Of a DNA stretch of 64,000 nt, positions 19,437 to 33,874 are shown in pieces. The DNA comes from Candidatus Micrarchaeota archaeon (GTDB taxonomy: Archaea; Micrarchaeota; Micrarchaeia; Anstonellales; JAHKLY01). The stretch lies in contig JAHKLY010000001.1 in assembly GCA_020854825.1 (NCBI GenBank), positions 192,001-256,000 on the forward strand, read 5' to 3'. The stretch's first letter is position 1. Every line of letters starts with the position of its first letter. Position numbers and translations under genes: made by a program. Under the pieces are notes generated by a model. That model was given only the letters and a program-made list of their open reading frames with translations. It was not told the DNA's origin and made no database searches.

Positions 19437-21191
19437 TTAAAATATTTTCATAACAGTTAGATCAGTTATTTCTTTTAAAAGTTTTTTTTCATCTTCTGTT
19501 AAATCATCCGAAAAATTCGTTTTTATTATACGTGCTGTTTCTCTATTTATGTTAGTATATAAAATATCTTCTTCATTAAAGTCTTTCCCTGCAATTGGTT
19601 TTTCCATTGAAACAGCAACTTGCATTCCTTTTAAAGCTTCTTTAACACTTTCTCCTTTGTTTTGTATTGCTTTTATTTCTCCTAATAATTCTCCTTTAGA
19701 GTTTATTATTTTAAATCCTGTTTTTATTTTTCCTCCTAAAATTTCCACACCAAAAACCGCAGGTTTACTAACTCTGAAAATATGATTTCTTAAAATTTGT
19801 ATTTTAGCTGGCCAAATTAATCCTTTCATTACTAGTTCTTTATCTCTTTGTTTTTCTTTTTCAACCCAGTCTTTATATTTATCGATTAAATCATAAACTA
19901 TATTACTTTCAAAAATAATTATTTCATCTTCTTTTGCATATTCTTTTGCATCTTCATTTATTGAAACATTAAATCCTAAAACAGCTCCTAAATATTTATC
20001 CATATTTTTCACAGCTTTTGCTCCTATTATATCAGTTTTTGTTATTTTGCCTATTCCTGCTTGTTTTATATTTATGTTTTCTCCTTTTAACATTTTTATT
20101 AAAGCTTCTGTTGAACCTAAAGTATCAGTTTTAACTATTACTCCTGCACCTTCTGATTCAAATAAAACTTTTTTTAATTGTTCTTCAATTTCTTTTGTTT
20201 GTTTTTCTTCATTTTCAAGTATCAAGAAAGGAGATCCAGGTATTGCATCTTCTAAATCTGGTGCAAATATTTTAAATCCAGATGCAGCGTGAACTTCGTC
20301 AACATAAATAAATTTGTCTTTAATATTTTGTCCTGGCAAAGTTGGTTTTAGAATTCCCCTTATTTTTGTTTTTTTAACTCCTTTTAATGTCCCAAATAAA
20401 AAATCATCTCCTTTTTTTACTGTTCCGTCGTATATTATTACATCAATAGTTGTTCCTAATCCTTTTTCTTCTTTAACTTCTAAGATTGAGCCTTTACCTT
20501 TTCCTTTAACTTCAATGTTTAAGTTTTTTTCCAAGTATTTCTGGCTTATGCCTGAAATGTATAATAATAATTCTGCTAATCCTTCTCCTGTTTTGGCGCT
20601 CATGGGAACTATTAATATTTGTTTTGTCATTTCTTGTATTCTGTCAAATCTTTCAGTATCAAATCCATACTCATACATTTTTCCGACTACTTCATAAATT
20701 TTATTATCTAATAGTTCTTTTGTATATTCTGATTGCTGTTTTAAACTGTCCATAAAACAAAAACTAGTTTTAGAAGTCCATCCTTGTAATAAATCTATCT
20801 TATTTGCTGCTATTATAAAAGGAGTTTTATTTTGTTTTAATATTTTTATACTTTCAATTGTTTGTGGCTGTATTCCTTGATTAATATCAATAACTAGGAC
20901 AGCTAAATCCGCTAAACTTCCCCCACGTTCTCTTAAAGATGTAAAAGCTTCATGTCCTGGTGTGTCTATGAATAAAATTCCAGGTAATTTAATTTCTAAG
21001 TTCATTTTTTCTAATTGATTTTTACAAATAGTTAATAAAACTTCTTTTGGGACTTCACTTGCAGATGTATGTTGTGTGATCGCGCCAGCTTCTTTTGAAG
21101 CTACTACTGTATTTCTAATTTTATCCAAAATAGAAGTTTTTCCATGATCTACATGACCCACGAATACACAGATACTTTGTCTTAATGCCAT
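19437..21191 (-). CDS. infB: Translation initiation factor IF-2 (aIF5B)
   Basis: GHVDHGKT, EAGAITQH, DTPGHEAF, NKID, DTLGSTEAL. Confidence 0.96.
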   Translation of the reverse strand: MALRQSICVFVGHVDHGKTSILDKIRNTVVASKEAGAITQHTSASEVPKEVLLTICKNQLEKMNLEIKLPGILFIDTPGHEAFTSLRERGGSLADLAVLVIDINQGIQPQTIESIKILKQNKTPFIIAANKIDLLQGWTSKTSFCFMDSLKQQSEYTKELLDNKIYEVVGKMYEYGFDTERFDRIQEMTKQILIVPMSAKTGEGLAELLLYISGISQKYLEKNLNIEVKGKGKGSILEVKEEKGLGTTIDVIIYDGTVKKGDDFLFGTLKGVKKTKIRGILKPTLPGQNIKDKFIYVDEVHAASGFKIFAPDLEDAIPGSPFLILENEEKQTKEIEEQLKKVLFESEGAGVIVKTDTLGSTEALIKMLKGENINIKQAGIGKITKTDIIGAKAVKNMDKYLGAVLGFNVSINEDAKEYAKEDEIIIFESNIVYDLIDKYKDWVEKEKQRDKELVMKGLIWPAKIQILRNHIFRVSKPAVFGVEILGGKIKTGFKIINSKGELLGEIKAIQNKGESVKEALKGMQVAVSMEKPIAGKDFNEEDILYTNINRETARIIKTNFSDDLTEDEKKLLKEITDLTVMKIF

Positions 21192-23157: not shown

Positions 23158-24462
23158 TCACTCATAATAAACTATTCTTTTGCCAATTCCCCATTTTTTA
23201 ATTGCAGCGCCTAATTCTTTGTGTTCTTTTGCATATTCTAAAATATCTTGTTTTTTCATAAATGAATCTATTGCTTGGCGCATTGCTTTAGCGCCTGATC
23301 TAACTCCATTTGGGTGGCCTGCAACTCCTCCGCCTGCTTGTAAAAATAGGTCGGTTCCGCCCCTGTTTATTGTTTCAGGTATAACTCCTGGATATAATCC
23401 ACCTGAAGAAACAGGCATTACATATTTAATGTTATGCCAATTTTGTTCTAAAACATGTTCTTTATCATTTTCATCTATTCTTTTTTTAACTAATGCGTCT
23501 CGTATGTTCAATTCTTCTTTATATTCACTTCTCATTTTTCCCATCCCAAATGTTCCAATATGTAATGAATCAGAGCCGATTAATCTGGCTATTTTTGCAA
23601 CAGCAAGCATTGTCATCCCATTTCTTGGATTATGTGTAAACATCCCATGTCCTGCTCTATGTGCATGAACTATTAGATTAGGGTGATGATTTCTCAAAGT
23701 TTCAAATCCTGCCCATCCGCATGTTAAAATATCTATCATAGTTATTCTTCCTCCATGATCATTTATAAATTGTGCCCTTCTTAGCATTTCATTAGATTCA
23801 GCAGACACATTGCAAACATATAATTTTTTCTCTCCTGTTTCACTTTCTACTTTATCTCTCATTTCTAAAGTTCTTATTACTCTTTCTTCAAATTTATTAA
23901 ATTTCATATCTGTTAAGTTTTCATCATCTTTTACTAAATCTAATCCTCCACTCCATGCTTCATATGCATATTGTGCGTGTCCTTTAGCAGTTCTTCCAAC
24001 TTTTGGTTTTACAATTGTACCACAAAAAGGTCTTTTTTTGATTTTAGCAATTTTTCTTATACCTTCAATTCCATGTTCTGGTCCTTTAAATGATTTTATG
24101 ATATCTTTTGGAAATGAAATATCTAATAATCTTAAGTTTTTCAATTCTTTCATTCCAAAAATATTTCCTGCTATTGCACTCATTATTTGTGACATATTTC
24201 CAGTTTCAAATAATCCAGAAGGATAAGCAATTTTTATTGTTTTATCTTTTGTATTAATATAAAATATATGTGGAGTTATTTTTTTTCTTAATGCTGGTGA
24301 AATACCCCCAACATCTGTCCATGTTCCGATTGATGATTCAGCAGTTATGTGTTCTGCTGCTTCTTTCAAAGTTAATTGTTTTTTTAATTTCCCTGGCTCA
24401 ACATAAAATTTGCATATTAAATCATTTTCTTTTGGTTTGTATTTTAAATTTGTAAAGCCCAT
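23158..24462 (-). CDS. rbcL: RuBisCO form III large subunit
   Basis: AESSIGTW, GNIFGMK, TIVKPKVG, GGLDLVKDDEN, HAHRA, HIGT...GKM, SSGGL, GGGVAGHP. Confidence 0.95.
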   Translation of the reverse strand: MGFTNLKYKPKENDLICKFYVEPGKLKKQLTLKEAAEHITAESSIGTWTDVGGISPALRKKITPHIFYINTKDKTIKIAYPSGLFETGNMSQIMSAIAGNIFGMKELKNLRLLDISFPKDIIKSFKGPEHGIEGIRKIAKIKKRPFCGTIVKPKVGRTAKGHAQYAYEAWSGGLDLVKDDENLTDMKFNKFEERVIRTLEMRDKVESETGEKKLYVCNVSAESNEMLRRAQFINDHGGRITMIDILTCGWAGFETLRNHHPNLIVHAHRAGHGMFTHNPRNGMTMLAVAKIARLIGSDSLHIGTFGMGKMRSEYKEELNIRDALVKKRIDENDKEHVLEQNWHNIKYVMPVSSGGLYPGVIPETINRGGTDLFLQAGGGVAGHPNGVRSGAKAMRQAIDSFMKKQDILEYAKEHKELGAAIKKWGIGKRIVYYE

Positions 24463-24554
24463 AAATATCACCTTAGTAATATATTTTATTAAGCTTTTTA
24501 TTAGTTTGTGTTTGTTTTAAATAGAAATATAAATATATTACTTAAAATTAAATT

Positions 24555-25877
24555 GTGGAAATTACTTTTTATGGTGGAGCGCAGGAAGTTGGAAGAAGTT
24601 GTATTAATGTTCTTTCTAAAACAAAACAAATAATGCTTGACTGCGGCATAAAATTAGGGGATCCGATTGAATATCCAATAATTCCTAAAAAAGATTTTAA
24701 ACGCATTAAATATATTGTTCCTACTCATACACATCTAGACCATATAGGATATTTACCTCACATTATACAAAGGTCAAAAAGTGCTAAGATTTATGCTACA
24801 AAACCAACAAGGGATCTAATGCAGTTATTATTATCTGATTATCAAAGACTACAAGAAAAAAAAGAGTTTTCAACAAAAGATGTTGAAAAAGTTTTAGAAA
24901 AAACACAACAAGTAGAATATAAAGAAAAAATAAAATCAAAAGGAATGTTTTCCTTCATTTTATATAATTCTGGACATATTTTGGGGGGAGCAATGGTTAA
25001 AGTAGAGGATAAATGTGATTTATTATATACTGGTGATTTAAATTTAAGAGAAACAAAAATAACTGAAGGTGCTCAACTAGGAATTAAAGCAAAAAATTTA
25101 ATTTTAGAATCAACTTATGGGGGAAAAACTGATAAATTACCTTCTTTAAAAATAGCATCTCAAAATTTAATTGAATCAATTAAAGAAACTTTAATTGCAG
25201 GAGGGTATGTTTTAATTCCAACATTTGCTGTTGGGAGAGGACAAAACATAATGATGGTTATTGAAAGTTATATGAGATCTGGAGCTTTACCTAAGGTGCC
25301 TATTTACACAGATGGCATGGTGAATAGGGCAAATAGGATTTATAGGCATAATGTTATTTATGCAAAAGAAGAAATTAAAATGAGAATTTTAATGAGTGAT
25401 GAAGATCCATTCAAAAGTCCTTTTTATAAAATACCACAAACAAGAGATAGAAGTGATGTTTTATCAGAACCTTGTATTATTTTATCAACATCTGGTATGC
25501 TAACTGGTGGCCCAGTTTTAACTTATTTACAAAAATTAATTGAAGATCCTAAAAATAAATTGATTATTGTTGGTTATCAAGTAGACGGTTCATTAGGTAG
25601 AAAATTGATAGATGGGGAAAAATATGTTGAGTTAGGACATGGAGAAGATAAAAAAGAATATGAAGTTAGAATGAAAGTTGAAACTGTTCCATTTTCAGGA
25701 CATTCTGATCATGATGAATTAGTTAAATTCACTAAATCTATTAAAGGATTAAAAAAAGTATTTTTAATGCATGGTGAACCAAGAAAAATTGATGAGTTAG
25801 CGCAGGATATTCAAAAACATCTTAAACAAGTTGAAATAATAATTCCAAAAAATGAAGAATCATTTAAAATTGATTAA
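24555..25877 (+). CDS. Beta-CASP metallo-beta-lactamase ribonuclease (aCPSF-like, no KH domains)
   Basis: GGAQEVGRS, THTHLDH, GHILG, ESTYG, TSGMLTGG, FSGHSD, HGE. Confidence 0.92.
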   Translation: MEITFYGGAQEVGRSCINVLSKTKQIMLDCGIKLGDPIEYPIIPKKDFKRIKYIVPTHTHLDHIGYLPHIIQRSKSAKIYATKPTRDLMQLLLSDYQRLQEKKEFSTKDVEKVLEKTQQVEYKEKIKSKGMFSFILYNSGHILGGAMVKVEDKCDLLYTGDLNLRETKITEGAQLGIKAKNLILESTYGGKTDKLPSLKIASQNLIESIKETLIAGGYVLIPTFAVGRGQNIMMVIESYMRSGALPKVPIYTDGMVNRANRIYRHNVIYAKEEIKMRILMSDEDPFKSPFYKIPQTRDRSDVLSEPCIILSTSGMLTGGPVLTYLQKLIEDPKNKLIIVGYQVDGSLGRKLIDGEKYVELGHGEDKKEYEVRMKVETVPFSGHSDHDELVKFTKSIKGLKKVFLMHGEPRKIDELAQDIQKHLKQVEIIIPKNEESFKID

Positions 25878-27273
25878 ATAAGATATCACAAAAGATCCAT
25901 TCAGCACTTAATCCTAAACTTGAATTTCCTTCTCCTGCTGAACCTAATATTCCAAATTTTAAATGTTCATTTCCAGCAGAAATTGATCCAAAGTATCTAT
26001 TGTCTCTTGTTTGTAAAACTAAATCTACCTCAAATTTATCTTTATTTCCAATAGTTAAATCAGTTCTAATAACAGGACTTAAAACATAATATGTATATTT
26101 GGGATTTTTTTCTATTTTTCCATTTGCTCCGATTTGGATTGTTAATATTTCTGGAAATTGTAAAAATACTGTTGCCCCTCCATGGATTTCTTCCCAGTTT
26201 GTAATAGTTATGAATTTGCTATCTGCATACATAGTTCCTAATCCCAGAAAGTATTTTCCATTTCCAAAATTGGCATTTTGAAAAACTAATTTAAAACCTA
26301 ATTCTCCTCTTGATCTTGGTTTTATTTTTATTTTTTCAGTATCTTCTTTATAGTTTATTGTTTCGTCTCTATCTCTGTATTTTAAATTTTGATCTAATCC
26401 TGCAATAGCTGTAAAATATGTTTGCAAAGGAGTTATTTCAAATTGAAATTCACCTCTTAAATTTGTACATATAGTTGTTCCTATAAATTCATTTATAATA
26501 TCTTTAAATATTATATTTTCAGAAATTGGTTTGTAAATTGTTATTCCTGCATCTAAAGTTGCTTTTTCAAAAACTATTCCTTTATATTTTGGTTTTGAAC
26601 CATCTGGACATAATGCTTCTGGATTTATTGTTCCTCTTAGAAAATATGAATTTGTTGGTTGCATAATAATGTCTGATTTTTCCTCGTTTATTGTTATAAT
26701 TAAAGAAGAAACTAAAGGTTCTATCCCAAGATTATGGATTCTTTCACCAGTAACTGGATCTCTTCCAAATATTTCTAAAAATGCTTGTCTCATGTTTATT
26801 TCATTATTACTTAATTTATTTATTATTTGGTTAGCTTGATTAACATAGATATTATCTATTCTAGATAATAAAGGAATAATTCCTTTTTGTATTTCTAATA
26901 TAAAATTATTTTTGATATTTAAATTATTTGCAAAAAAAACATAATTGGCTGAATAACTTGCCATATTTTTTGAAGAATTTAGCAAATTATCTATTAAGGG
27001 CCCTACAAAACTATTCAAATCAGAACCAACCCCAACAAATTCAATACCTTCTGTTAATTCTAATATGTTTTCTTTATTTTGTCCTCTGTCATTCAATTCA
27101 ATATCTAATTTTTTAATATCTACTTGAGAACTTGAAGTATTTGAATAATACGAATTATTTATATATTGTGCATTAGTAGTTTTGGGCATTATTCCTTTTA
27201 ATAATGCAAAACCCATTCCAGTATACAACATAATGTTTCCAATAATCTTTATAGTTTTATTTTTAAGTTTCAT
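25864..27273 (-). CDS. Secreted hypothetical protein (469 aa) with beta-barrel-like C-terminus; paralogue of 29828-33733
   Basis: Signal peptide ending TNA-Q; shared FGRDP motif; amphipathic beta-strands. Confidence 0.8.
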   Translation of the reverse strand: MKLKNKTIKIIGNIMLYTGMGFALLKGIMPKTTNAQYINNSYYSNTSSSQVDIKKLDIELNDRGQNKENILELTEGIEFVGVGSDLNSFVGPLIDNLLNSSKNMASYSANYVFFANNLNIKNNFILEIQKGIIPLLSRIDNIYVNQANQIINKLSNNEINMRQAFLEIFGRDPVTGERIHNLGIEPLVSSLIITINEEKSDIIMQPTNSYFLRGTINPEALCPDGSKPKYKGIVFEKATLDAGITIYKPISENIIFKDIINEFIGTTICTNLRGEFQFEITPLQTYFTAIAGLDQNLKYRDRDETINYKEDTEKIKIKPRSRGELGFKLVFQNANFGNGKYFLGLGTMYADSKFITITNWEEIHGGATVFLQFPEILTIQIGANGKIEKNPKYTYYVLSPVIRTDLTIGNKDKFEVDLVLQTRDNRYFGSISAGNEHLKFGILGSAGEGNSSLGLSAEWIFCDILFNQF

Positions 27274-27343
27274 GTATTATTTAGTGTCTTTTTGAGTATA
27301 TAAATGTTTTGATAAAATTAAAAAAGGAAAAAACAGTTTAATT

Positions 27344-29821
27344 TTACAAATAATCTGGGCAATACCATACGAACCCACAGGTTACTGTACATTCGGCTTC
27401 TTCATACATAGGAATTCCTGTTGGATCAGTCCAATTAGCAAATATGGTGTAAGTACTTCGGTATGAATCTGCACCACAGTTCCATTTTATTCGTTTAATA
27501 TAATTAGGAGGAATTCTTGTTGATTCACTAATAGGGAAATAATTAGGAATTACACTCCCCTCCCAATTTACTCCACCTACATTTATAATTATCTCATCAC
27601 CATTATATAAAACTCCCCATTCTCCCTCTGCACTTCCTCCTTCTTCAATTTCTAAATCTGTGCAAAAGACATCTATGTCTACGGGTTCTGGAGGGACACA
27701 TTCTAATAGTATATTTACACAATTATCATCTTCTCTTGATTCCATTACATTAAATCTTGAGTCAGCACAGATAGTAAGAATATGGTCTTCTTCTTCCTCT
27801 ATTAAATATGAATATTCATGTGTTACACTTGAAAAAGGAGCAGTTAATGCAGTTGCAAAATCTATACATGTTCCCCAAGTATCTCCAAAAGGTCTTCCTG
27901 TATTCGGGGCTCTATGTGGTGCATGTAAAGGTAGATTTGGATTATTAGTATTAGGTAATGGAGGAACTGAATAATCTGTATTATCTAATTCATACCCATC
28001 TACTCTTCTTAATACAACATTTGTCCAGCTTGAATTTTCAGAACAAATTCCATTTGAATAAGTGCTAATGTTAATCGTCTGTGTTTCATTTACAATACAA
28101 GGACCCCTAAATAAAATTAATGGCCCCACATGTATTTCTTCTACGTCAGCCCTAACTCGTAAGTTAGTTTGAGACTCACAAACAATAGTTAAATTTCCAC
28201 AATTATTATTTTCGTTTATTTCCTTTACTTTATTGTAAACATCAGCACACACAGTAAAGGTAATATTCATATTAACTCCTACTGGACAAGTAAATTCATT
28301 AGTATTAATTTGACTTTGTCTGGGATTTAAATTAGGAACTTCATAATAAGCAGGCATAAAATAATGAGGTACATCTGATCTTAATATAGTGGTGGATGTA
28401 TTTTCAGTGTTTAATGAACCAATATTTGAAGTATTTATGTTAATTAAAACAAGGTCTCTTTCTCTTGCATATATAATCCCATTGCCTAAAGGACTCGTTA
28501 AACTTGCAATTAAATCAGGTCCTTGAATAATAGGAACTTCAACTTCCCATTCATTTATCGGGTCATTACAATAAGGGGAAGTAGTATCAAAATATAATAT
28601 GAAATTTATTTCGTCTCCAGGAGTATATGTTAAAGAAGCTTCTAATGTTCCTTCAACTATAAATAAAAATTCACCTGGTCCTGAACCTGGAGGAGTAATT
28701 TCTATATTATAAGGAGTATCTGGAGTAAAAATAAAGTCATGATTATTTGGTATTATGTTTGTAATATTAAATGGCATAGTAGTTCTATTTAAGAATAAAT
28801 GAATTATTACATTTTGTGTTTCTCCTGGATTTATGACAATTGGAGAGCTTCCACTTCCATCAGTCACATACACATTATTAATTTCAATTTGTGGATCTGC
28901 AACTATAAATTGATAATTTAATGTTTCACTAGGATTAAACCTGAACAAATTATCTATACAATTTGTTGATCCTTGACTAGGAAGACAATACTTTGTTATA
29001 ACTGAGTATCTACTATTTGTACATAATTGTCCATCTGCATATCTTTTAGAAAAATATAAACATTTAACTTCATCAAGATTAATATCAATAACATGTGTAC
29101 CAATTTCAGAAACTGTAAATGAATTTGAGTAATCTTCTATTGGGCCATTATAAAACAAAGCCCCATCAATATAAACTTTAAGATTTCCTTGGCAAATTAA
29201 ACTTACATTTACGCCAGAATTAGGATAATTTATTGTTTCATCTTGTTTTGGATAAAATCTTACATTTGTTAATTGATTTAAAAAATCATTAAAAGAATTA
29301 TAATAACAGCCGCTTGAAGTGGGATATACATCTGCAAAACATCCTTCACTAGTAGAATAATATCTGTTAATTCCTTCTTGATCAAAAACAATTTTTAAAT
29401 TATTTGTGGTTCCTGGGGGAGCACAACAGCTACCTGGGGCAGAAGGATTACAACCCATTCCTTGTATTCCATTTAAATCTATATGTGCAGACATTCCTAA
29501 ATACATTTGATTTGTTTGGATATTTTCATTTAGATTAACATCTATATTAACTTCACCCGCACATATAACTGCATTAATAGGTAAATCACTAGGTTCATCA
29601 CCAGAAAGAACAGTAGAACTAGTAGATATTATTTCGCTCATATATACTTGAAAAGGATTTGTTTGAATATATGTGTGAGGTCCTGATACTGGAGGAGGGC
29701 CCGGGTTTCTAATTTGATATAATTTTATTTGAGGAAAATTAAAATTTTCAGATTCAACCGCAAAAATATTGCTAATTAAAACTAATGTTAAAATTATCAC
29801 AACTGTTTTATTTACTTTCAT
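27344..29821 (-). CDS. Secreted Cys-rich surface protein with CARDB/Ig-like domains (825 aa)
   Basis: Signal peptide ending IFA; PDL...N.G...CADVYNKVKEINENNNC and CADSRFNVMESREDDNC CARDB signatures. Confidence 0.8.
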   Translation of the reverse strand: MKVNKTVVIILTLVLISNIFAVESENFNFPQIKLYQIRNPGPPPVSGPHTYIQTNPFQVYMSEIISTSSTVLSGDEPSDLPINAVICAGEVNIDVNLNENIQTNQMYLGMSAHIDLNGIQGMGCNPSAPGSCCAPPGTTNNLKIVFDQEGINRYYSTSEGCFADVYPTSSGCYYNSFNDFLNQLTNVRFYPKQDETINYPNSGVNVSLICQGNLKVYIDGALFYNGPIEDYSNSFTVSEIGTHVIDINLDEVKCLYFSKRYADGQLCTNSRYSVITKYCLPSQGSTNCIDNLFRFNPSETLNYQFIVADPQIEINNVYVTDGSGSSPIVINPGETQNVIIHLFLNRTTMPFNITNIIPNNHDFIFTPDTPYNIEITPPGSGPGEFLFIVEGTLEASLTYTPGDEINFILYFDTTSPYCNDPINEWEVEVPIIQGPDLIASLTSPLGNGIIYARERDLVLININTSNIGSLNTENTSTTILRSDVPHYFMPAYYEVPNLNPRQSQINTNEFTCPVGVNMNITFTVCADVYNKVKEINENNNCGNLTIVCESQTNLRVRADVEEIHVGPLILFRGPCIVNETQTINISTYSNGICSENSSWTNVVLRRVDGYELDNTDYSVPPLPNTNNPNLPLHAPHRAPNTGRPFGDTWGTCIDFATALTAPFSSVTHEYSYLIEEEEDHILTICADSRFNVMESREDDNCVNILLECVPPEPVDIDVFCTDLEIEEGGSAEGEWGVLYNGDEIIINVGGVNWEGSVIPNYFPISESTRIPPNYIKRIKWNCGADSYRSTYTIFANWTDPTGIPMYEEAECTVTCGFVWYCPDYL

Positions 29822-29827
29822 ATATAT

Positions 29828-32800
29828 CTACCTCAATATTTCTATTCCTATTCCCCATTGGTTTATTGGGTCTTCTTCTTTTATTATGGAATTTTTAAAT
29901 TCTCCTCTTAATCTAATTTCGAAGGATTCTCTTCCTATATTTATTTTTCTTGTTATACTTACTCCTAATGTGCCAGTTGCACCCAATCCCAGTATATGTC
30001 TTTGATTAATCTCTTCTCTATTATAAACAGCTAATGCACTTGCATCTGCCCCAATTCCCCAGTTTTTACCTATTGGAACATCAATATTTAAATTCATATT
30101 TGGAGACATAGTTAAATATCCACCACCTGCAAGTACTCCTTCAGGAGTTGTATATTCTAAATGTGTTCCTATGCCAATTTTAATATTATTATTATTTTTT
30201 ATTGGATTAATTAAAATCATTCCCCCTCCATATAATCTTTCAATATTTTTTTCATCGTAGAATTTTACTCCTCCATATATTGCAGTTTTATCTAAAAGTT
30301 TTCCAAAAATGGATTCAGATTTAGTTAAGGGTTGGACAACAGCACCTATTCCATATCTTATTTTTTTTTCTATTTCTTTTTCATTATTTAATATAGATTC
30401 TAAATCTAGATCTGATAATATTTCTTCTCTTAGTGCTTTTAATGTAAGTATAGTCTTTAAAGGAACTATATGAAATCCCATTTCTGCTATTGCTCTTGTA
30501 GTTAATGCTTTTTCTGAAAAATTAGTTATTTCTTTTATATCATCTCTAGTCACAATAATTTCTCCACTTTCTCCGAGTATTTCTGCTGCATATTCAGTAG
30601 TTTCAAAACCCGCTTTAAAACTATAAAAATTTATTCCGTTTTCAGAATATAGTGATTTTATAGTTTTTGTAGAAAACATTGCACCATATGTGTATGACGG
30701 GACCACACGAATATTAACTCTAGATCTAGCTTTTCCAACCATTGCACCAGAAATAATTTCAAATCTTCCTTCACTTACTGGATCTCCGGAGATTGGGTCT
30801 CTACCAAATAATAGTTTATATGCTTCATCAATTGTAATTCTGTTTGCAGTTAAATCAGTAAGTACTTCATCTAACATACCTTCATAATCTGTGTAAGGGT
30901 CTGATCTATCTATATCCTTAATCAAAGGTCGTAGATACTCTTCTATATTCGCAATAAAATTAGTTTTTAAATTATTGTAGGCAATTGTTCCTCCGAATTG
31001 ATCATATGTAGATAAGTTAGCAACAATTGTAATGTTTTCTAATCCTTCTTTTAAATAATTCGCAGTTTCTTGATAAGAATTTAGATCAGCTCCCGTTTCT
31101 AATTGAGGAACAGTAAAAGCAACTAAAACGTTTTGTATCTCTGAAGGCATGTTAACTTCCGGCATTTCTGTTATTTTTTCTCTTGAACCTATTATTATTT
31201 TTCCAACTAATGTAGGATTATCTGCAGGTTCCATTAATCTGATATACTCATGTTCAAATGGAAGTGCATATATTTTATATTCAGTTGATGATCCTTCTTC
31301 AGGAACTTCTCCTATATTTCTTGCATCTAATGTGTAATCAATTTTTCCATCTTCTCCTGCTTTTGTTATTTCACAAGAAACTATTTTCCCTTCAGAATTT
31401 ACTACATAAAGATAAATCCATGAATTTTTTGCTTCTTCGTCTTTAATTTTATTTTCATTTAATTTATTATTTTTATCTGTACTAAAAAATGTTCCTCCAT
31501 AAAATATTTGAGTATTAAATTGTAGATTAAATGAATTATCTGTCAAATCATCTATAATTAATGTTTGTCGCCCATCTCTTGTTTGTCTTCTTTGGAATAA
31601 TAATTGAACTGTTACTAAATTTTCTTCTTTTAAAGTTGTTAAATCTCCAGTTATAACTCCTTCACGTTTGTCTAATATAACATTTGATTTACCAACAGAT
31701 AATTGTAGTTTTGTAACTCCTTGTGTTAATTTATCAAAATCAAATTCAGGGACATAAAACCCATTTGCCCCAAGAGATTCTAAAGAGTTCTTTAATTTTT
31801 GTCCTTCTGGTTTTGTCCAAAAATCCCATTCTTTCCAAGTGCAGATTAAGGAGTAATTTAATCCTAATCTTCCGCCCGCAGCAGTATACATTAAGAAGAA
31901 CATTCTCTCATCTTTCATATTTTCAAGTGAATTCCTAATATCTCTTTTTGTTATATTTGGATTTAATTGTTTATTTATGTCTTCAGAAGATCTGACTATA
32001 TATATCCAAGCTAAATCTGTCATTTTATCTAATATTTCTCTTGATTCTTCTTTTCCTTCTAAAACAAGATTCCTCATTTTTTCCATTGTCCATCCTTTTG
32101 AATCAGCAAATTTTTCTAGTTCTCCAAGAAGTTTTTCTGCATTTATATATGCATTAATGTGGTTTTTGATAGGGTATTTTATAAAATCTCCCATTTTTCC
32201 TTCTTTTGTCATTATTTCATTAAATTCAGTGGAGCTTATTTTGTGGTCTCCATATCTATTACTAACACCATAGGTTAAACCACACAATATGAATGCCAAT
32301 TTATACTGTTCTTGTAGATAATTAGGTATTGAAGAATAAGAAACTATATTTGGATTATTATAATAAGATTGGATAGCAGTTTTTAGATTATTATCCATGA
32401 AACTCAATTTATAAATATCTTGTAATGTTAAGTTTTCTTTATTTGCTAGTACATACAATTCTTGTAATCTTGAATTTGATTCACCAAATGTATTTTTTAA
32501 TTCCAATGCAATTAAAATATTTGGAAGATTGATAAAACCTTTGGTAACTATATCTATCATTTCAGTTGTGGGGTTTCTCCAATCTACATCTGTTGTTATT
32601 CTTAAATCTTCTAAAGATTCGACGATTAATGGATGTAACGTATTCATACCTATCATCCATCGTCTAAAATTACTATCCTTTGTAAATTGGTTAAAAAATA
32701 AATCTTTATTTTCATTGTTTATTCTTAAGTCTAAAGTTAATTCTCCTTGTTCATTTTTGGTGATTTCATATTTGATCATATTTGTACCATAGTATATATC

Positions 32801-33733
32801 TGCATATCTTATTAAATCAAAAACAATTCCATTTCTAAATTGTTTAAGATAATCTTCAAAATCAAATGTTGTTTGATTTGGATTACCAATATTTACGAGA
32901 TATATCTTATCTTCAATTGAAATCTCGGTTTTATTTATTTGTTCATACGTTTTTCCTTGTATATTTTCATAAGAACTTCCAATAATTCCAGCAGTTTTTG
33001 AAGCATTAAATGATACATTAGATAATGTTCCATCTCCAAAATCATACCCACTTATAATTGCATCTAAGCTGACTTTACCCTCTAGTGCTGAATTTAAAAT
33101 ATCAATAATAGGCATATTTGTAACTAAACTTGGTTCTGTTTTACTAGGAACAATTCCAGTTAATTTTTCGTGGGTTACAAAACCCCTATCAAAAAATTGA
33201 TCATATAATTTATCAATCTGTATTATATTATCTTTTTGTTGTGCATCAAATTCTTTTTTTTTACCTTGGATAATTATAGAGGTATGGTAGGTTCTCAGAA
33301 ATTCTTCTTGTATTTTATTTGTTTTGATAGTTCTTGTTTCTTTATGGATTGCATTAAATCTACTTCCAGGATTTATTTGTGTTTGTAAAAGAGTGTATAC
33401 AATTCTCTGTGCTTCAATTTCTAATGATTCAGAAGTATTTTCTAAGGCAGTTTTAATATCTTTTTTTAATGCGTCATTATTTCTAATAAAATTTTGGTTT
33501 TCAAAAAAATTCATCAAAATATCTATTTTTGATTCAATTGTTGAATGCTGATTTCCCATACCATAATCACCTTCATAATTATTATAATTATCTCTCTTTA
33601 AAAAAGTATTTAATAGTTCCTTTTCAATTAAAGGTTGGGCAAAACTCAATGTGCTTTGAAAAAGCATAGCTCCAGCTGCTAGTTTTATAGTAAAATTTCT
33701 AAATTTTTGATTTTTAAAAAAGTGCTTTTTCAT
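29828..33733 (-). CDS. Secreted giant hypothetical protein (1301 aa) with beta-barrel-like C-terminus
   Basis: Signal peptide ending SFA-Q; FGRDP motif; strands ending QWGIGIEILR. Confidence 0.82.
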   Translation of the reverse strand: MKKHFFKNQKFRNFTIKLAAGAMLFQSTLSFAQPLIEKELLNTFLKRDNYNNYEGDYGMGNQHSTIESKIDILMNFFENQNFIRNNDALKKDIKTALENTSESLEIEAQRIVYTLLQTQINPGSRFNAIHKETRTIKTNKIQEEFLRTYHTSIIIQGKKKEFDAQQKDNIIQIDKLYDQFFDRGFVTHEKLTGIVPSKTEPSLVTNMPIIDILNSALEGKVSLDAIISGYDFGDGTLSNVSFNASKTAGIIGSSYENIQGKTYEQINKTEISIEDKIYLVNIGNPNQTTFDFEDYLKQFRNGIVFDLIRYADIYYGTNMIKYEITKNEQGELTLDLRINNENKDLFFNQFTKDSNFRRWMIGMNTLHPLIVESLEDLRITTDVDWRNPTTEMIDIVTKGFINLPNILIALELKNTFGESNSRLQELYVLANKENLTLQDIYKLSFMDNNLKTAIQSYYNNPNIVSYSSIPNYLQEQYKLAFILCGLTYGVSNRYGDHKISSTEFNEIMTKEGKMGDFIKYPIKNHINAYINAEKLLGELEKFADSKGWTMEKMRNLVLEGKEESREILDKMTDLAWIYIVRSSEDINKQLNPNITKRDIRNSLENMKDERMFFLMYTAAGGRLGLNYSLICTWKEWDFWTKPEGQKLKNSLESLGANGFYVPEFDFDKLTQGVTKLQLSVGKSNVILDKREGVITGDLTTLKEENLVTVQLLFQRRQTRDGRQTLIIDDLTDNSFNLQFNTQIFYGGTFFSTDKNNKLNENKIKDEEAKNSWIYLYVVNSEGKIVSCEITKAGEDGKIDYTLDARNIGEVPEEGSSTEYKIYALPFEHEYIRLMEPADNPTLVGKIIIGSREKITEMPEVNMPSEIQNVLVAFTVPQLETGADLNSYQETANYLKEGLENITIVANLSTYDQFGGTIAYNNLKTNFIANIEEYLRPLIKDIDRSDPYTDYEGMLDEVLTDLTANRITIDEAYKLLFGRDPISGDPVSEGRFEIISGAMVGKARSRVNIRVVPSYTYGAMFSTKTIKSLYSENGINFYSFKAGFETTEYAAEILGESGEIIVTRDDIKEITNFSEKALTTRAIAEMGFHIVPLKTILTLKALREEILSDLDLESILNNEKEIEKKIRYGIGAVVQPLTKSESIFGKLLDKTAIYGGVKFYDEKNIERLYGGGMILINPIKNNNNIKIGIGTHLEYTTPEGVLAGGGYLTMSPNMNLNIDVPIGKNWGIGADASALAVYNREEINQRHILGLGATGTLGVSITRKINIGRESFEIRLRGEFKNSIIKEEDPINQWGIGIEILR

Positions 33734-33755
33734 ACTTAATATTTGTTAAGAAGTA

Positions 33756-33768
33756 TATAAAAATGTTT
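33756..33768 (-). promoter_or_regulatory. BRE-TATA promoter of the 1301-aa gene (leaderless geometry)
   Basis: AAACATTTTTATA ending 22 nt before the ATG; same geometry at 15193, 19384, 22626, 27297 and 56417. Confidence 0.6.
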
Positions 33769-33874
33769 ATGAATTTGTAATTATATTCATTTGTAATTGG
33801 TTTAAATTTTAAACTAACCTTTATAAAGTTTATTTTAGTAGATTGTTTATAAAACTTATTAAAATAGAGGTGAT

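Follow-up and report, generated by a model that had tools for sequence, protein, structure and literature searches.

A 64,000-nucleotide stretch of a Candidatus Micrarchaeota archaeon (assembly GCA_020854825.1, contig JAHKLY010000001.1, positions 192,001 to 256,000 of the forward strand), hereafter the window, carries a hypervariable locus of three genes for proteins of 1301, 825 and 469 amino acids (P0001, P0002 and P0003). The conserved core of this presumed cell-surface locus of a small-genome DPANN-type archaeon is a tightly coupled pair: P0001, a large Cys-poor protein with a probably helix-rich front and a Gly-rich tail of predicted long antiparallel strands, and P0002, presumably a secreted, disulfide-rich protein with several CARDB domains and the ending C-x-D-Y-[LIV]. 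With a probability of roughly 0.4 we favour the reading that the tail is a beta module like that of outer-membrane proteins (OMPs), which provides the anchor or the pore of a cell-surface CARDB adhesin complex that evolves fast. The tail would follow a helical domain and fold as an OMP-like up-and-down beta sheet with about 14-16 strands, a barrel being the most likely form. It may insert into the membrane of the own envelope or of a host as the anchor or pore of a complex in which the proteins bind each other, and the variable front of P0001 together with the CARDB protein would contact the partner cell. The first-pass annotation of this DNA had proposed an archaeal outer-membrane or autotransporter-like system. 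Its observation was confirmed, three co-oriented open reading frames (ORFs) being present exactly at the coordinates and on the minus strand as noted, and its interpretation found partial support.

P0001 and P0003 have a C-terminal module of approximately 390-430 amino acids in common. BLASTP aligned residues 880-1175 of P0001 with residues 82-371 of P0003 (E-value 8e-13, 25% identity, 313 columns), phmmer scored the relation with 2.8e-12 when some 700 sequences served as background, and in the MAFFT alignment it extends through to the C-termini. The paralogy seen in the first-pass annotation thus holds, and so do the motif pairs quoted for it except the last: F-G-R-D-P, GFHIVPLKT/FQFEITPLQT and LYGGG/IHGGA were paired by BLASTP and the later ones by MAFFT, but at the very end MAFFT placed SLGLSAEW against EIRLRGEF and IFCDIL against IGIEIL, not SLGLSAEWIF against QWGIGIEILR. 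Periodicity analysis located alpha-type hydrophobic moments in residues 80-185 of P0003 and 880-990 of P0001 and beta-type moments in the last 280-300 residues; nine (P0003) and eleven (P0001) strict alternating-hydrophobic windows of nine residues were counted, which fits the description of a helical domain followed by amphipathic strands. F-G-R-D-P is invariant in P0001 and its orthologues P0007 and P0008 and in P0003 and its orthologues P0005 and P0006; the relative in genome G005 keeps D-P. The long copy indeed has a large N-terminal extension, about 840 residues ahead of the module, and no internal repeat of the module was reported within this front. A short motif of P0001 (residues ~955-975) recurs near residue 210 (209-237) in a local BLASTP match with an E-value of 0.049. 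In the relative of genome G002 (L014:2985-6215, minus strand) the helix before F-G-R-D-P (residues 767-789) showed a weak SHOCT-like match, PF22746, with an E-value of 0.011, below the cut-off.

The gene of P0002 starts 6 nucleotides past the stop codon of P0001. Two stretches of the protein match the CARDB family PF07705, the better one with 4.2e-11, so the CARDB assignment of the 825-residue protein was correct. All three genes are syntenic in a close relative (locus L003). In a genome of the same genus (G001) and in one of another family (G002), a full-length relative of P0002 (42% identity and BLASTP 4e-14, respectively) lies directly 3' of the gene for a large protein that is poor in Cys and has a beta-rich tail, and no P0003-like gene was present at these syntenic loci. 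Searched with a profile of P0002, 24 of the 176 genomes in the order gave matches, for the most part through the generic CARDB region. Of seven inspected loci with matches outside CARDB, four presented the same layout (G241, G033, G348, G117) and three did not (G242, G058, G372). A further pair, with a gap of 5 nucleotides, was reached in G010 via the tail of the G033 protein. An adjacent pair of large protein and CARDB protein is therewith found in eight genomes (the own genome G000, G001, G002, G241, G033, G348, G117 and G010), which represent five of the twelve families of the order that were searched. The conserved unit is this pair and not the trio. The first-pass picture of two barrels flanking a CARDB protein overlooks this unit; the gene of 469 codons is missing at the loci of G001 and G002. 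P0003 is a lineage-specific duplicate of the P0001 tail module, a recent addition with a candidate promoter of its own.

The two partners differ consistently in composition. The upstream proteins contain 0-7 Cys residues versus 13-42 in the CARDB partners, their last 300 residues have 9-15% Gly versus 6-9%, and 5-11 long alternating-hydrophobic windows versus 2-5 were counted in this part. At phmmer level at least four groups of upstream proteins can be told apart, without a detectable mutual relation. The CARDB partners match PF07705 above the cut-off; only the G010 relative stays below (20.3 versus 22.7 bits). The CARDB partner ends with C-x-D-[YF]-[LIV] in seven of the eight pair genomes, the exception being G117, and endings of the same kind as that of P0002 include those in G241, G033, G348 and G010. 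The three loci with another layout (L063, L071, L072 in G242, G058 and G372) contain secreted proteins in arrays, many of them rich in Cys, and each ends with a hydrophobic helix and a conserved P-[LI]-L-G-G-[DE]-like tail, possibly a C-terminal sorting signal of the order that has so far gone unrecognised.

Compared with the orthologues at L003, amino acid identities were 67% for P0001, 70% for P0002 and 77% for P0003, versus 97% for the flanking beta-CASP protein. The nonsynonymous divergence (dN) amounted to 0.245, 0.223 and 0.134 versus 0.012, the synonymous divergence (dS) to 0.733, 0.648 and 0.376 versus 0.189. The locus is hypervariable, and the promoter region and intergenic stretch of P0001 are 96% identical. 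With dN/dS ratios of 0.33-0.36 the three genes are under purifying selection, hence they are real genes. Within P0001 the front evolves faster (59-63% identity to the orthologues, dN 0.306) than the module (75-78%, dN 0.134). The substitutions in the module are evenly spread, with no indel-rich loops in the orthologue alignments. A slow, even module and a fast front suit an exposed, variable head that sits on a buried, conserved base, and a soluble stalk equally. The flanks of the locus, 24555-25877 and 33734-33874, are 96-97% identical to L003, and the genes between them have a lower identity and raised dS values (0.38-0.73 versus 0.19). This contrast suggests that alleles have been exchanged at a fixed position of the chromosome or that old, divergent ones exist there.

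The argument for a membrane barrel starts from the structure model of P0003 in the ESM Atlas (pLDDT 0.46). Eight of its ten neighbour rows are bacterial outer-membrane barrels and the other two are unnamed. Among the neighbours are PorP_SprF (TM 0.45 by query and 0.57 by row over 284 residues), Autotransporter (0.43/0.61), Porin_7 (0.36/0.61), TonB-dependent receptors and Porin_10; by row, TM was 0.57-0.63 for four small barrels and 0.28-0.40 for the other named rows. The alignments comprise 203-284 residues and run from P0003 residues ~37-216 up to 448-469. The ESM feature neighbours of P0003 were an 'Outer membrane protein' cluster (top, 0.91), BcsS and Phage_OMP, those of the P0001 module included Tsx at 0.88, the best being 0.89. 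In the count of long alternating-hydrophobic windows P0001 (11) and P0003 (9) rank first and second among 277 ORFs of the own genome, a set restricted to at least 250 amino acids and to ORFs without a helical-transmembrane-like segment beyond residue 45. For calibration, E. coli OMPs had 6-11 windows and 39 of 40 non-OMPs had 6 or less, with Tsf at 9. A helical transmembrane segment is absent from P0001 and P0003 (no 19-residue hydrophobic window above 1.5). On the tails of two positional equivalents the OMP_b-brl family, PF13505, gave sub-threshold matches (G117: 1.3e-3, 19.4 bits; G241: 1.6e-2, 15.8 bits; cut-off 28.7). Of the first-pass annotation the paralogous beta-rich modules are supported, and the outer-membrane barrels around the Atlas model point to an OMP-like character; neither a closed barrel nor a hydrophobic belt was seen in this low-confidence model. 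A PF13505 match in the own genome (12 bits) was rejected as a false positive on a phosphoribosyltransferase-like ORF.

Several results weigh against a membrane barrel. The Atlas model is of low confidence (pLDDT 0.46, pTM 0.35), and low-confidence beta meanders may mimic barrels. The top ESM feature neighbour shares only 142 of 256 features, and shuffled proteins reach scores of 0.9 or more 4-10 times in 100. When the crude window count is not filtered for helical transmembrane segments, P0003 is found among the top 26 of 397 ORFs. PF13505 did not match P0001 or P0003, and OMP_b-brl hints occurred in 2 of 15 upstream-type proteins, all below the cut-off. Comparison by hhalign of the beta part with 46 E. 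coli proteins, six of them OMPs, stayed at noise (BamA probability 3.6%). Across the proteome a strict C-terminal beta-signal pattern was not enriched (9 found, 6.1 expected) and misses the candidates. Alternating variable loops which would give the module a sidedness were not seen in the orthologue alignments, unlike the usual exposed loops of OMPs. The module, P0001, P0002, three positional equivalents and the profile A9 obtained nothing significant against PDB sequences and profiles; the best match was a de novo transmembrane beta-barrel with a non-significant E-value of 1.4. Neither P0001 nor P0003 has a family in Pfam, NCBIfam, PHROGs or PADLOC. An outer membrane is not known for this lineage. 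In the genome, which is 97.6% complete, the Omp85 family PF01103 had no match at E-values up to 1 (control positive in 8 of 14 genomes), and the LptD family PF04453 had none either. Finally, an N-terminal signal peptide is missing from the relatives or positional equivalents of P0001 in G002, G241, G117 and G010. This is a poor match to a barrel exported by Sec and the main reason why the probability of the membrane barrel was held below one half.

A signal for export is clear in one protein of the locus. P0002 has a clear signal peptide with a hydrophobic N-terminus (KD19 2.15), but the N-termini of P0001 and P0003, which the first-pass annotation had counted as secreted as well, are only weakly signal-like as judged by eye, with KD19 windows below 1.5. 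The signal-like N-terminus of P0001 is kept in P0007 and P0008. The G002 relative starts right after a TATA-like box without a hydrophobic N-terminus, and P0001 exceeds it by about 126 N-terminal residues. A six-frame search of the whole genome with the Autotransporter family PF03797 revealed no match at E-values up to 1 (control positive in 4 of 14 genomes), and a search for OmpH/Skp returned sub-threshold coiled-coil noise (control positive in 14 of 14 genomes). Since Omp85, Autotransporter and LptD all lack a match, a bacterial-type assembly route is not present, and the genome search for an Omp85/BamA-like assembly factor proposed in the first-pass annotation gave no match.

A soluble surface or S-layer-type complex is the main alternative, if not a likely one. 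The module would then have a non-membrane fold, e.g., stacked sandwiches, a beta-solenoid or a lectin-like domain, and serve as the stalk or lattice carrying the CARDB protein, much like the Ig- and lectin-rich surface proteins of cultivated DPANN archaea. Sandwiches also show alternating hydrophobic strands, the hypervariability resembles that of other surface proteins, the density of sequons exceeds the proteome median (0.92-1.45 versus 0.55 per 100 amino acids), and the absence of outer-membrane machinery and the low confidence of the Atlas model also speak for this alternative. Known archaeal and DPANN surface proteins are Ig-, lectin- or pectin-lyase-like, fast-evolving and without sequence homologues, as described in a preprint on Nanobdella (10.1101/2023.10.27.564410). 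However, every named structural neighbour in the Atlas is a barrel and none is a sandwich, the strand windows are long (at least nine residues) and denser than in the true sandwich proteins that the CARDB partners are, the module has little Cys and much Gly next to a Cys-rich partner, and P0001 and P0003 have no C-terminal transmembrane anchor of the SlaB type.

The original idea of a diderm organism, with P0001 and P0003 as true OMPs of its own outer membrane and P0001 as an autotransporter-like protein with an N-terminal passenger, is improbable. In favour of it, P0001 has its parts in the order of type Va autotransporters, with a signal-like N-terminus, a large front, a helical linker and a beta tail of about 300 residues, the Atlas neighbours include a cluster of autotransporter beta-domains (TM 0.43/0.61), and the genome encodes further orphans with OMP-looking tails (P0009 and proteins of 1516 and 302 amino acids, see below). 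Some archaea (ARMAN, Altiarchaeum, Ignicoccus) have been reported as diderm, and two reviews list double membranes for Ignicoccus, ARMAN, Altiarchaeum and Methanomassiliicoccus (PMC4243693, PMC8871954). Yet no finding connects the present lineage with ARMAN or with a double membrane, the families PF03797, PF01103 and LptD have no match, most equivalents of P0001 are without signal peptide, a tail of ~300-310 residues plus a helical domain of ~100 residues is not the 250-residue, 12-strand unit of PF03797, and neither a stand-alone copy such as P0003 nor an obligate CARDB partner belongs to an autotransporter. That the large protein is not Sec-exported at all, acting inside the cell or being released by vesicles or lysis, e.g., as a pore-former for the host, its signal-like N-termini being lineage-specific or no signals, would agree with the start of the G002 relative behind its TATA-like box, with the equivalents of G241, G117 and G010 and with P0009, all without a hydrophobic N-terminus, and with the extra N-terminal residues of P0001, but is more improbable still, the tight coupling to a clearly secreted, disulfide-rich partner arguing for the same compartment and the N-termini of P0001 and P0003 having a basic N-region, a hydrophobic core and small residues at -3/-1 before Q that are kept in the orthologues.

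The module remains an orphan in sequence space. A word-indexed search obtained only P0005 (77%) and P0006 (63%) as orthologues of P0003 and only P0007 and P0008 as orthologues of P0001; an exhaustive search of 1.84 billion representatives with P0003 had P0003 as sole match. With the module profile the own genome yielded only the two copies, a set of 61 relatives one match, which was the own genome, and the phylum two of 401 genomes (G000, G005). In the order five of 176 genomes matched at E-values up to 0.1, among them G002 at 0.003, a relation backed by BLASTP (3e-10) and a reciprocal match. Five of 401 genomes matched in the class, three of which had been used in building the profile, and two were marginal. 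In the searches made, the module is thus confined to five genomes or contigs: mapping the family across relatives, as the first-pass annotation had envisaged, gave matches in few genomes but no wide spread. Scans of genome contigs for further loci confirmed none, hhalign of profile A9 against A5 gave a probability of 2.3%, and hhalign of the G001 tail against the module showed no relation.

Membership in the autotransporter or in Omp85-dependent OMP families is not supported. P0001 resembles type Va autotransporters (PF03797, e.g., E. coli Ag43) in its order of parts, and the PF03797 beta-domain cluster lies among the neighbours of the predicted P0003 model. There is, however, no sequence match, Pfam having no family for P0001 or P0003 at E-values up to 1, and the host is archaeal and without BamA, the module is longer, a stand-alone duplicate exists and a CARDB partner gene accompanies the large protein. 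Two-partner secretion with a TpsB/Omp85 protein and POTRA domains does not apply, PF01103 being absent from the genome and P0001 and P0003 holding no Pfam family. Gly-rich, alternating-hydrophobic tails, often with an aromatic or hydrophobic last strand, are shared with the small outer-membrane barrels OMP_b-brl (PF13505) and PorP/SprF (PF11751), but the equivalents score below the cut-off (19.4 and 15.8 versus 28.7 bits) and P0001 and P0003 not at all. From the CARDB surface proteins (PF07705), which P0002 and its relatives match, they are set apart by ~13-42 Cys residues, the C-x-D-Y-[LIV] end and the obligate Cys-poor, beta-tailed neighbour. SlaA and SlaB come, to our knowledge, without a Cys-rich CARDB partner or a C-x-D-Y-[LIV] end. 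SlaA/SlaB of the Sulfolobales and the surface proteins of Nanobdella aerobiophila are alike in the adjacency of large and smaller surface genes, in fast divergence, in the absence of distant homologues and in a likely role at the symbiont-host interface. SlaB differs by its C-terminal transmembrane helix as anchor, which P0001 and P0003 do not have. Ig-like surface proteins of DPANN archaea differ as well, the Atlas model of the module not looking Ig-like.

Membrane beta-barrels count as a hallmark of organelles and of diderm bacteria. Our literature search, as far as the sources were accessible, gave no report of a membrane beta-barrel family in archaea or DPANN and none of DPANN surface proteins with CARDB of this type. 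The nearest precedent is the mention of a possible distant PopA relative in Altiarchaeales, from a 2025 paper (PMC12228718). If the proposed module is a barrel in a membrane, archaea would have their first family of membrane beta-barrels and DPANN episymbionts a candidate for their 'hole-making' device; it would change the view of possible archaeal envelopes and give a handle on the symbiont-host contact. How DPANN symbionts attach to a host and how the hole between the two cells forms is stated as unknown in the Nanobdella preprint (10.1101/2023.10.27.564410), where the surface proteins are described as Ig-like, lectin-like and pectin-lyase-like. The most extended version of the proposal, in which DPANN archaea of the order possess single-chain transmembrane beta-barrels, unrelated in sequence to bacterial OMPs, independent of Omp85, paired with a CARDB adhesin docking via C-x-D-Y-[LIV], and inserted in an archaeal outer envelope or a host membrane as anchor or channel of the symbiont-host contact, is unlikely as a whole. 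If there is no barrel, a Cys-poor beta-tailed protein with a C-x-D-Y-[LIV] CARDB protein would still be a new, fast-evolving surface module. P0003, with little beyond the module, is a small and concrete test case.

Table 1 Positions of genes, protein parts and candidate signals of the locus (numbering of the window)
Feature	Position	Strand	Remarks
P0001	29828..33733	minus	ORF of 1301 amino acids: signal-like N-terminus, N-terminal region of ~840 residues without known family, C-terminal module
P0001 residues 1-32, possible Sec signal peptide	33638..33733	minus	basic N-region, moderately hydrophobic core, S-F-A before Q; by eye
P0001 N-terminal 'passenger-like' region (~residues 33-870)	31124..33637	minus	fastest-evolving part
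P0001 module, helical part (~residues 880-990)	30764..31096	minus	alpha-type hydrophobic periodicity; aligned with P0003 82-185
P0001 F-G-R-D-P motif (residues 976-980)	30794..30808	minus	helix-to-strand junction
P0001 module, beta-rich part (~residues 991-1301), candidate barrel	29831..30763	minus	11 alternating-hydrophobic windows, beta periodicity
P0002	27344..29821	minus	ORF of 825 amino acids: secreted, Cys-rich (27 Cys), multi-CARDB
P0002 best CARDB domain (residues 453-541)	28199..28465	minus	PF07705, 4.2e-11, 43.4 bits versus cut-off 22.7
P0002 C-terminal C-P-D-Y-L	27347..27361	minus	C821, D823, Y824, L825 invariant in 4-row alignment A6
P0003	25864..27273	minus	ORF of 469 amino acids: signal-like N-terminus and stand-alone module copy
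P0003 module (residues 82-469)	25867..27030	minus	helical 82-185, beta-rich 186-469
P0003 F-G-R-D-P motif (residues 169-173)	26755-26769	minus	
TATA-like TTTTTATATA	33754..33763	minus	ends 21 nucleotides before P0001 ATG; read by eye
T-rich run past P0002 stop	27314..27333	minus	candidate archaeal terminator closing the P0001-P0002 transcript
TATA-like TTTATATA	27297..27304	minus	ends 24 nucleotides before P0003 ATG; candidate P0003 promoter

The TATA-like boxes are presumably promoters and the T-rich run presumably a terminator, following the archaeal TATA consensus and oligo-T termination. On this assumption P0001 and P0002 would form one transcript and P0003 its own. The spacing of the first box suggests that the P0001 transcript is probably short-leadered or leaderless.

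The own genome comprises 828,311 bases in 7 contigs with a G+C content of ~27%. The adjoining genes belong to archaeal housekeeping: aIF5B, ribosomal protein S24e, Kae1, a form III-type RuBisCO, the beta-CASP nuclease and PFOR subunits. Genome size and gene content suggest that the source is a DPANN-type symbiont. Six sequencing runs contain the stretch; all are DNA runs with the label 'sludge metagenome', and no RNA run is among the six.

Three further orphans of this genome have OMP-looking tails. P0009 (12405-15170, minus strand; 921 amino acids) has no signal peptide and no family in Pfam, NCBIfam or PADLOC. Its last ~280 residues look strongly OMP-like, and only P0001 and P0003 surpass it in the strand-window count (rank 3 of 277); hhalign of P0009 against the module found no relation. 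An orphan of 1516 amino acids on contig C4 (L051:2260-6810, plus strand) has a signal-like N-terminus and a terminal alternating aromatic strand with a final F. The third, of 302 amino acids on contig C5 (L052:3048-3956, minus strand), ends with Y-Y-W-F-W and was found in the same genus only (2 of 176 genomes). Neither of these two has a Pfam family.

A homologue of the RuBisCO large chain (23158-24471, minus strand; PF00016, 1.5e-81) adjoins the locus, as it does at the syntenic positions in L003 and G001. Its type is probably form III, which serves nucleotide salvage and is frequent in small genomes of archaea. In G001, the genome of the same genus, the aIF5B gene (L018:680-4072, minus strand) encodes 1130 amino acids versus 584 in the window (19437-21191); by eye the insert resembles what we take to be an intein with a homing-endonuclease part.

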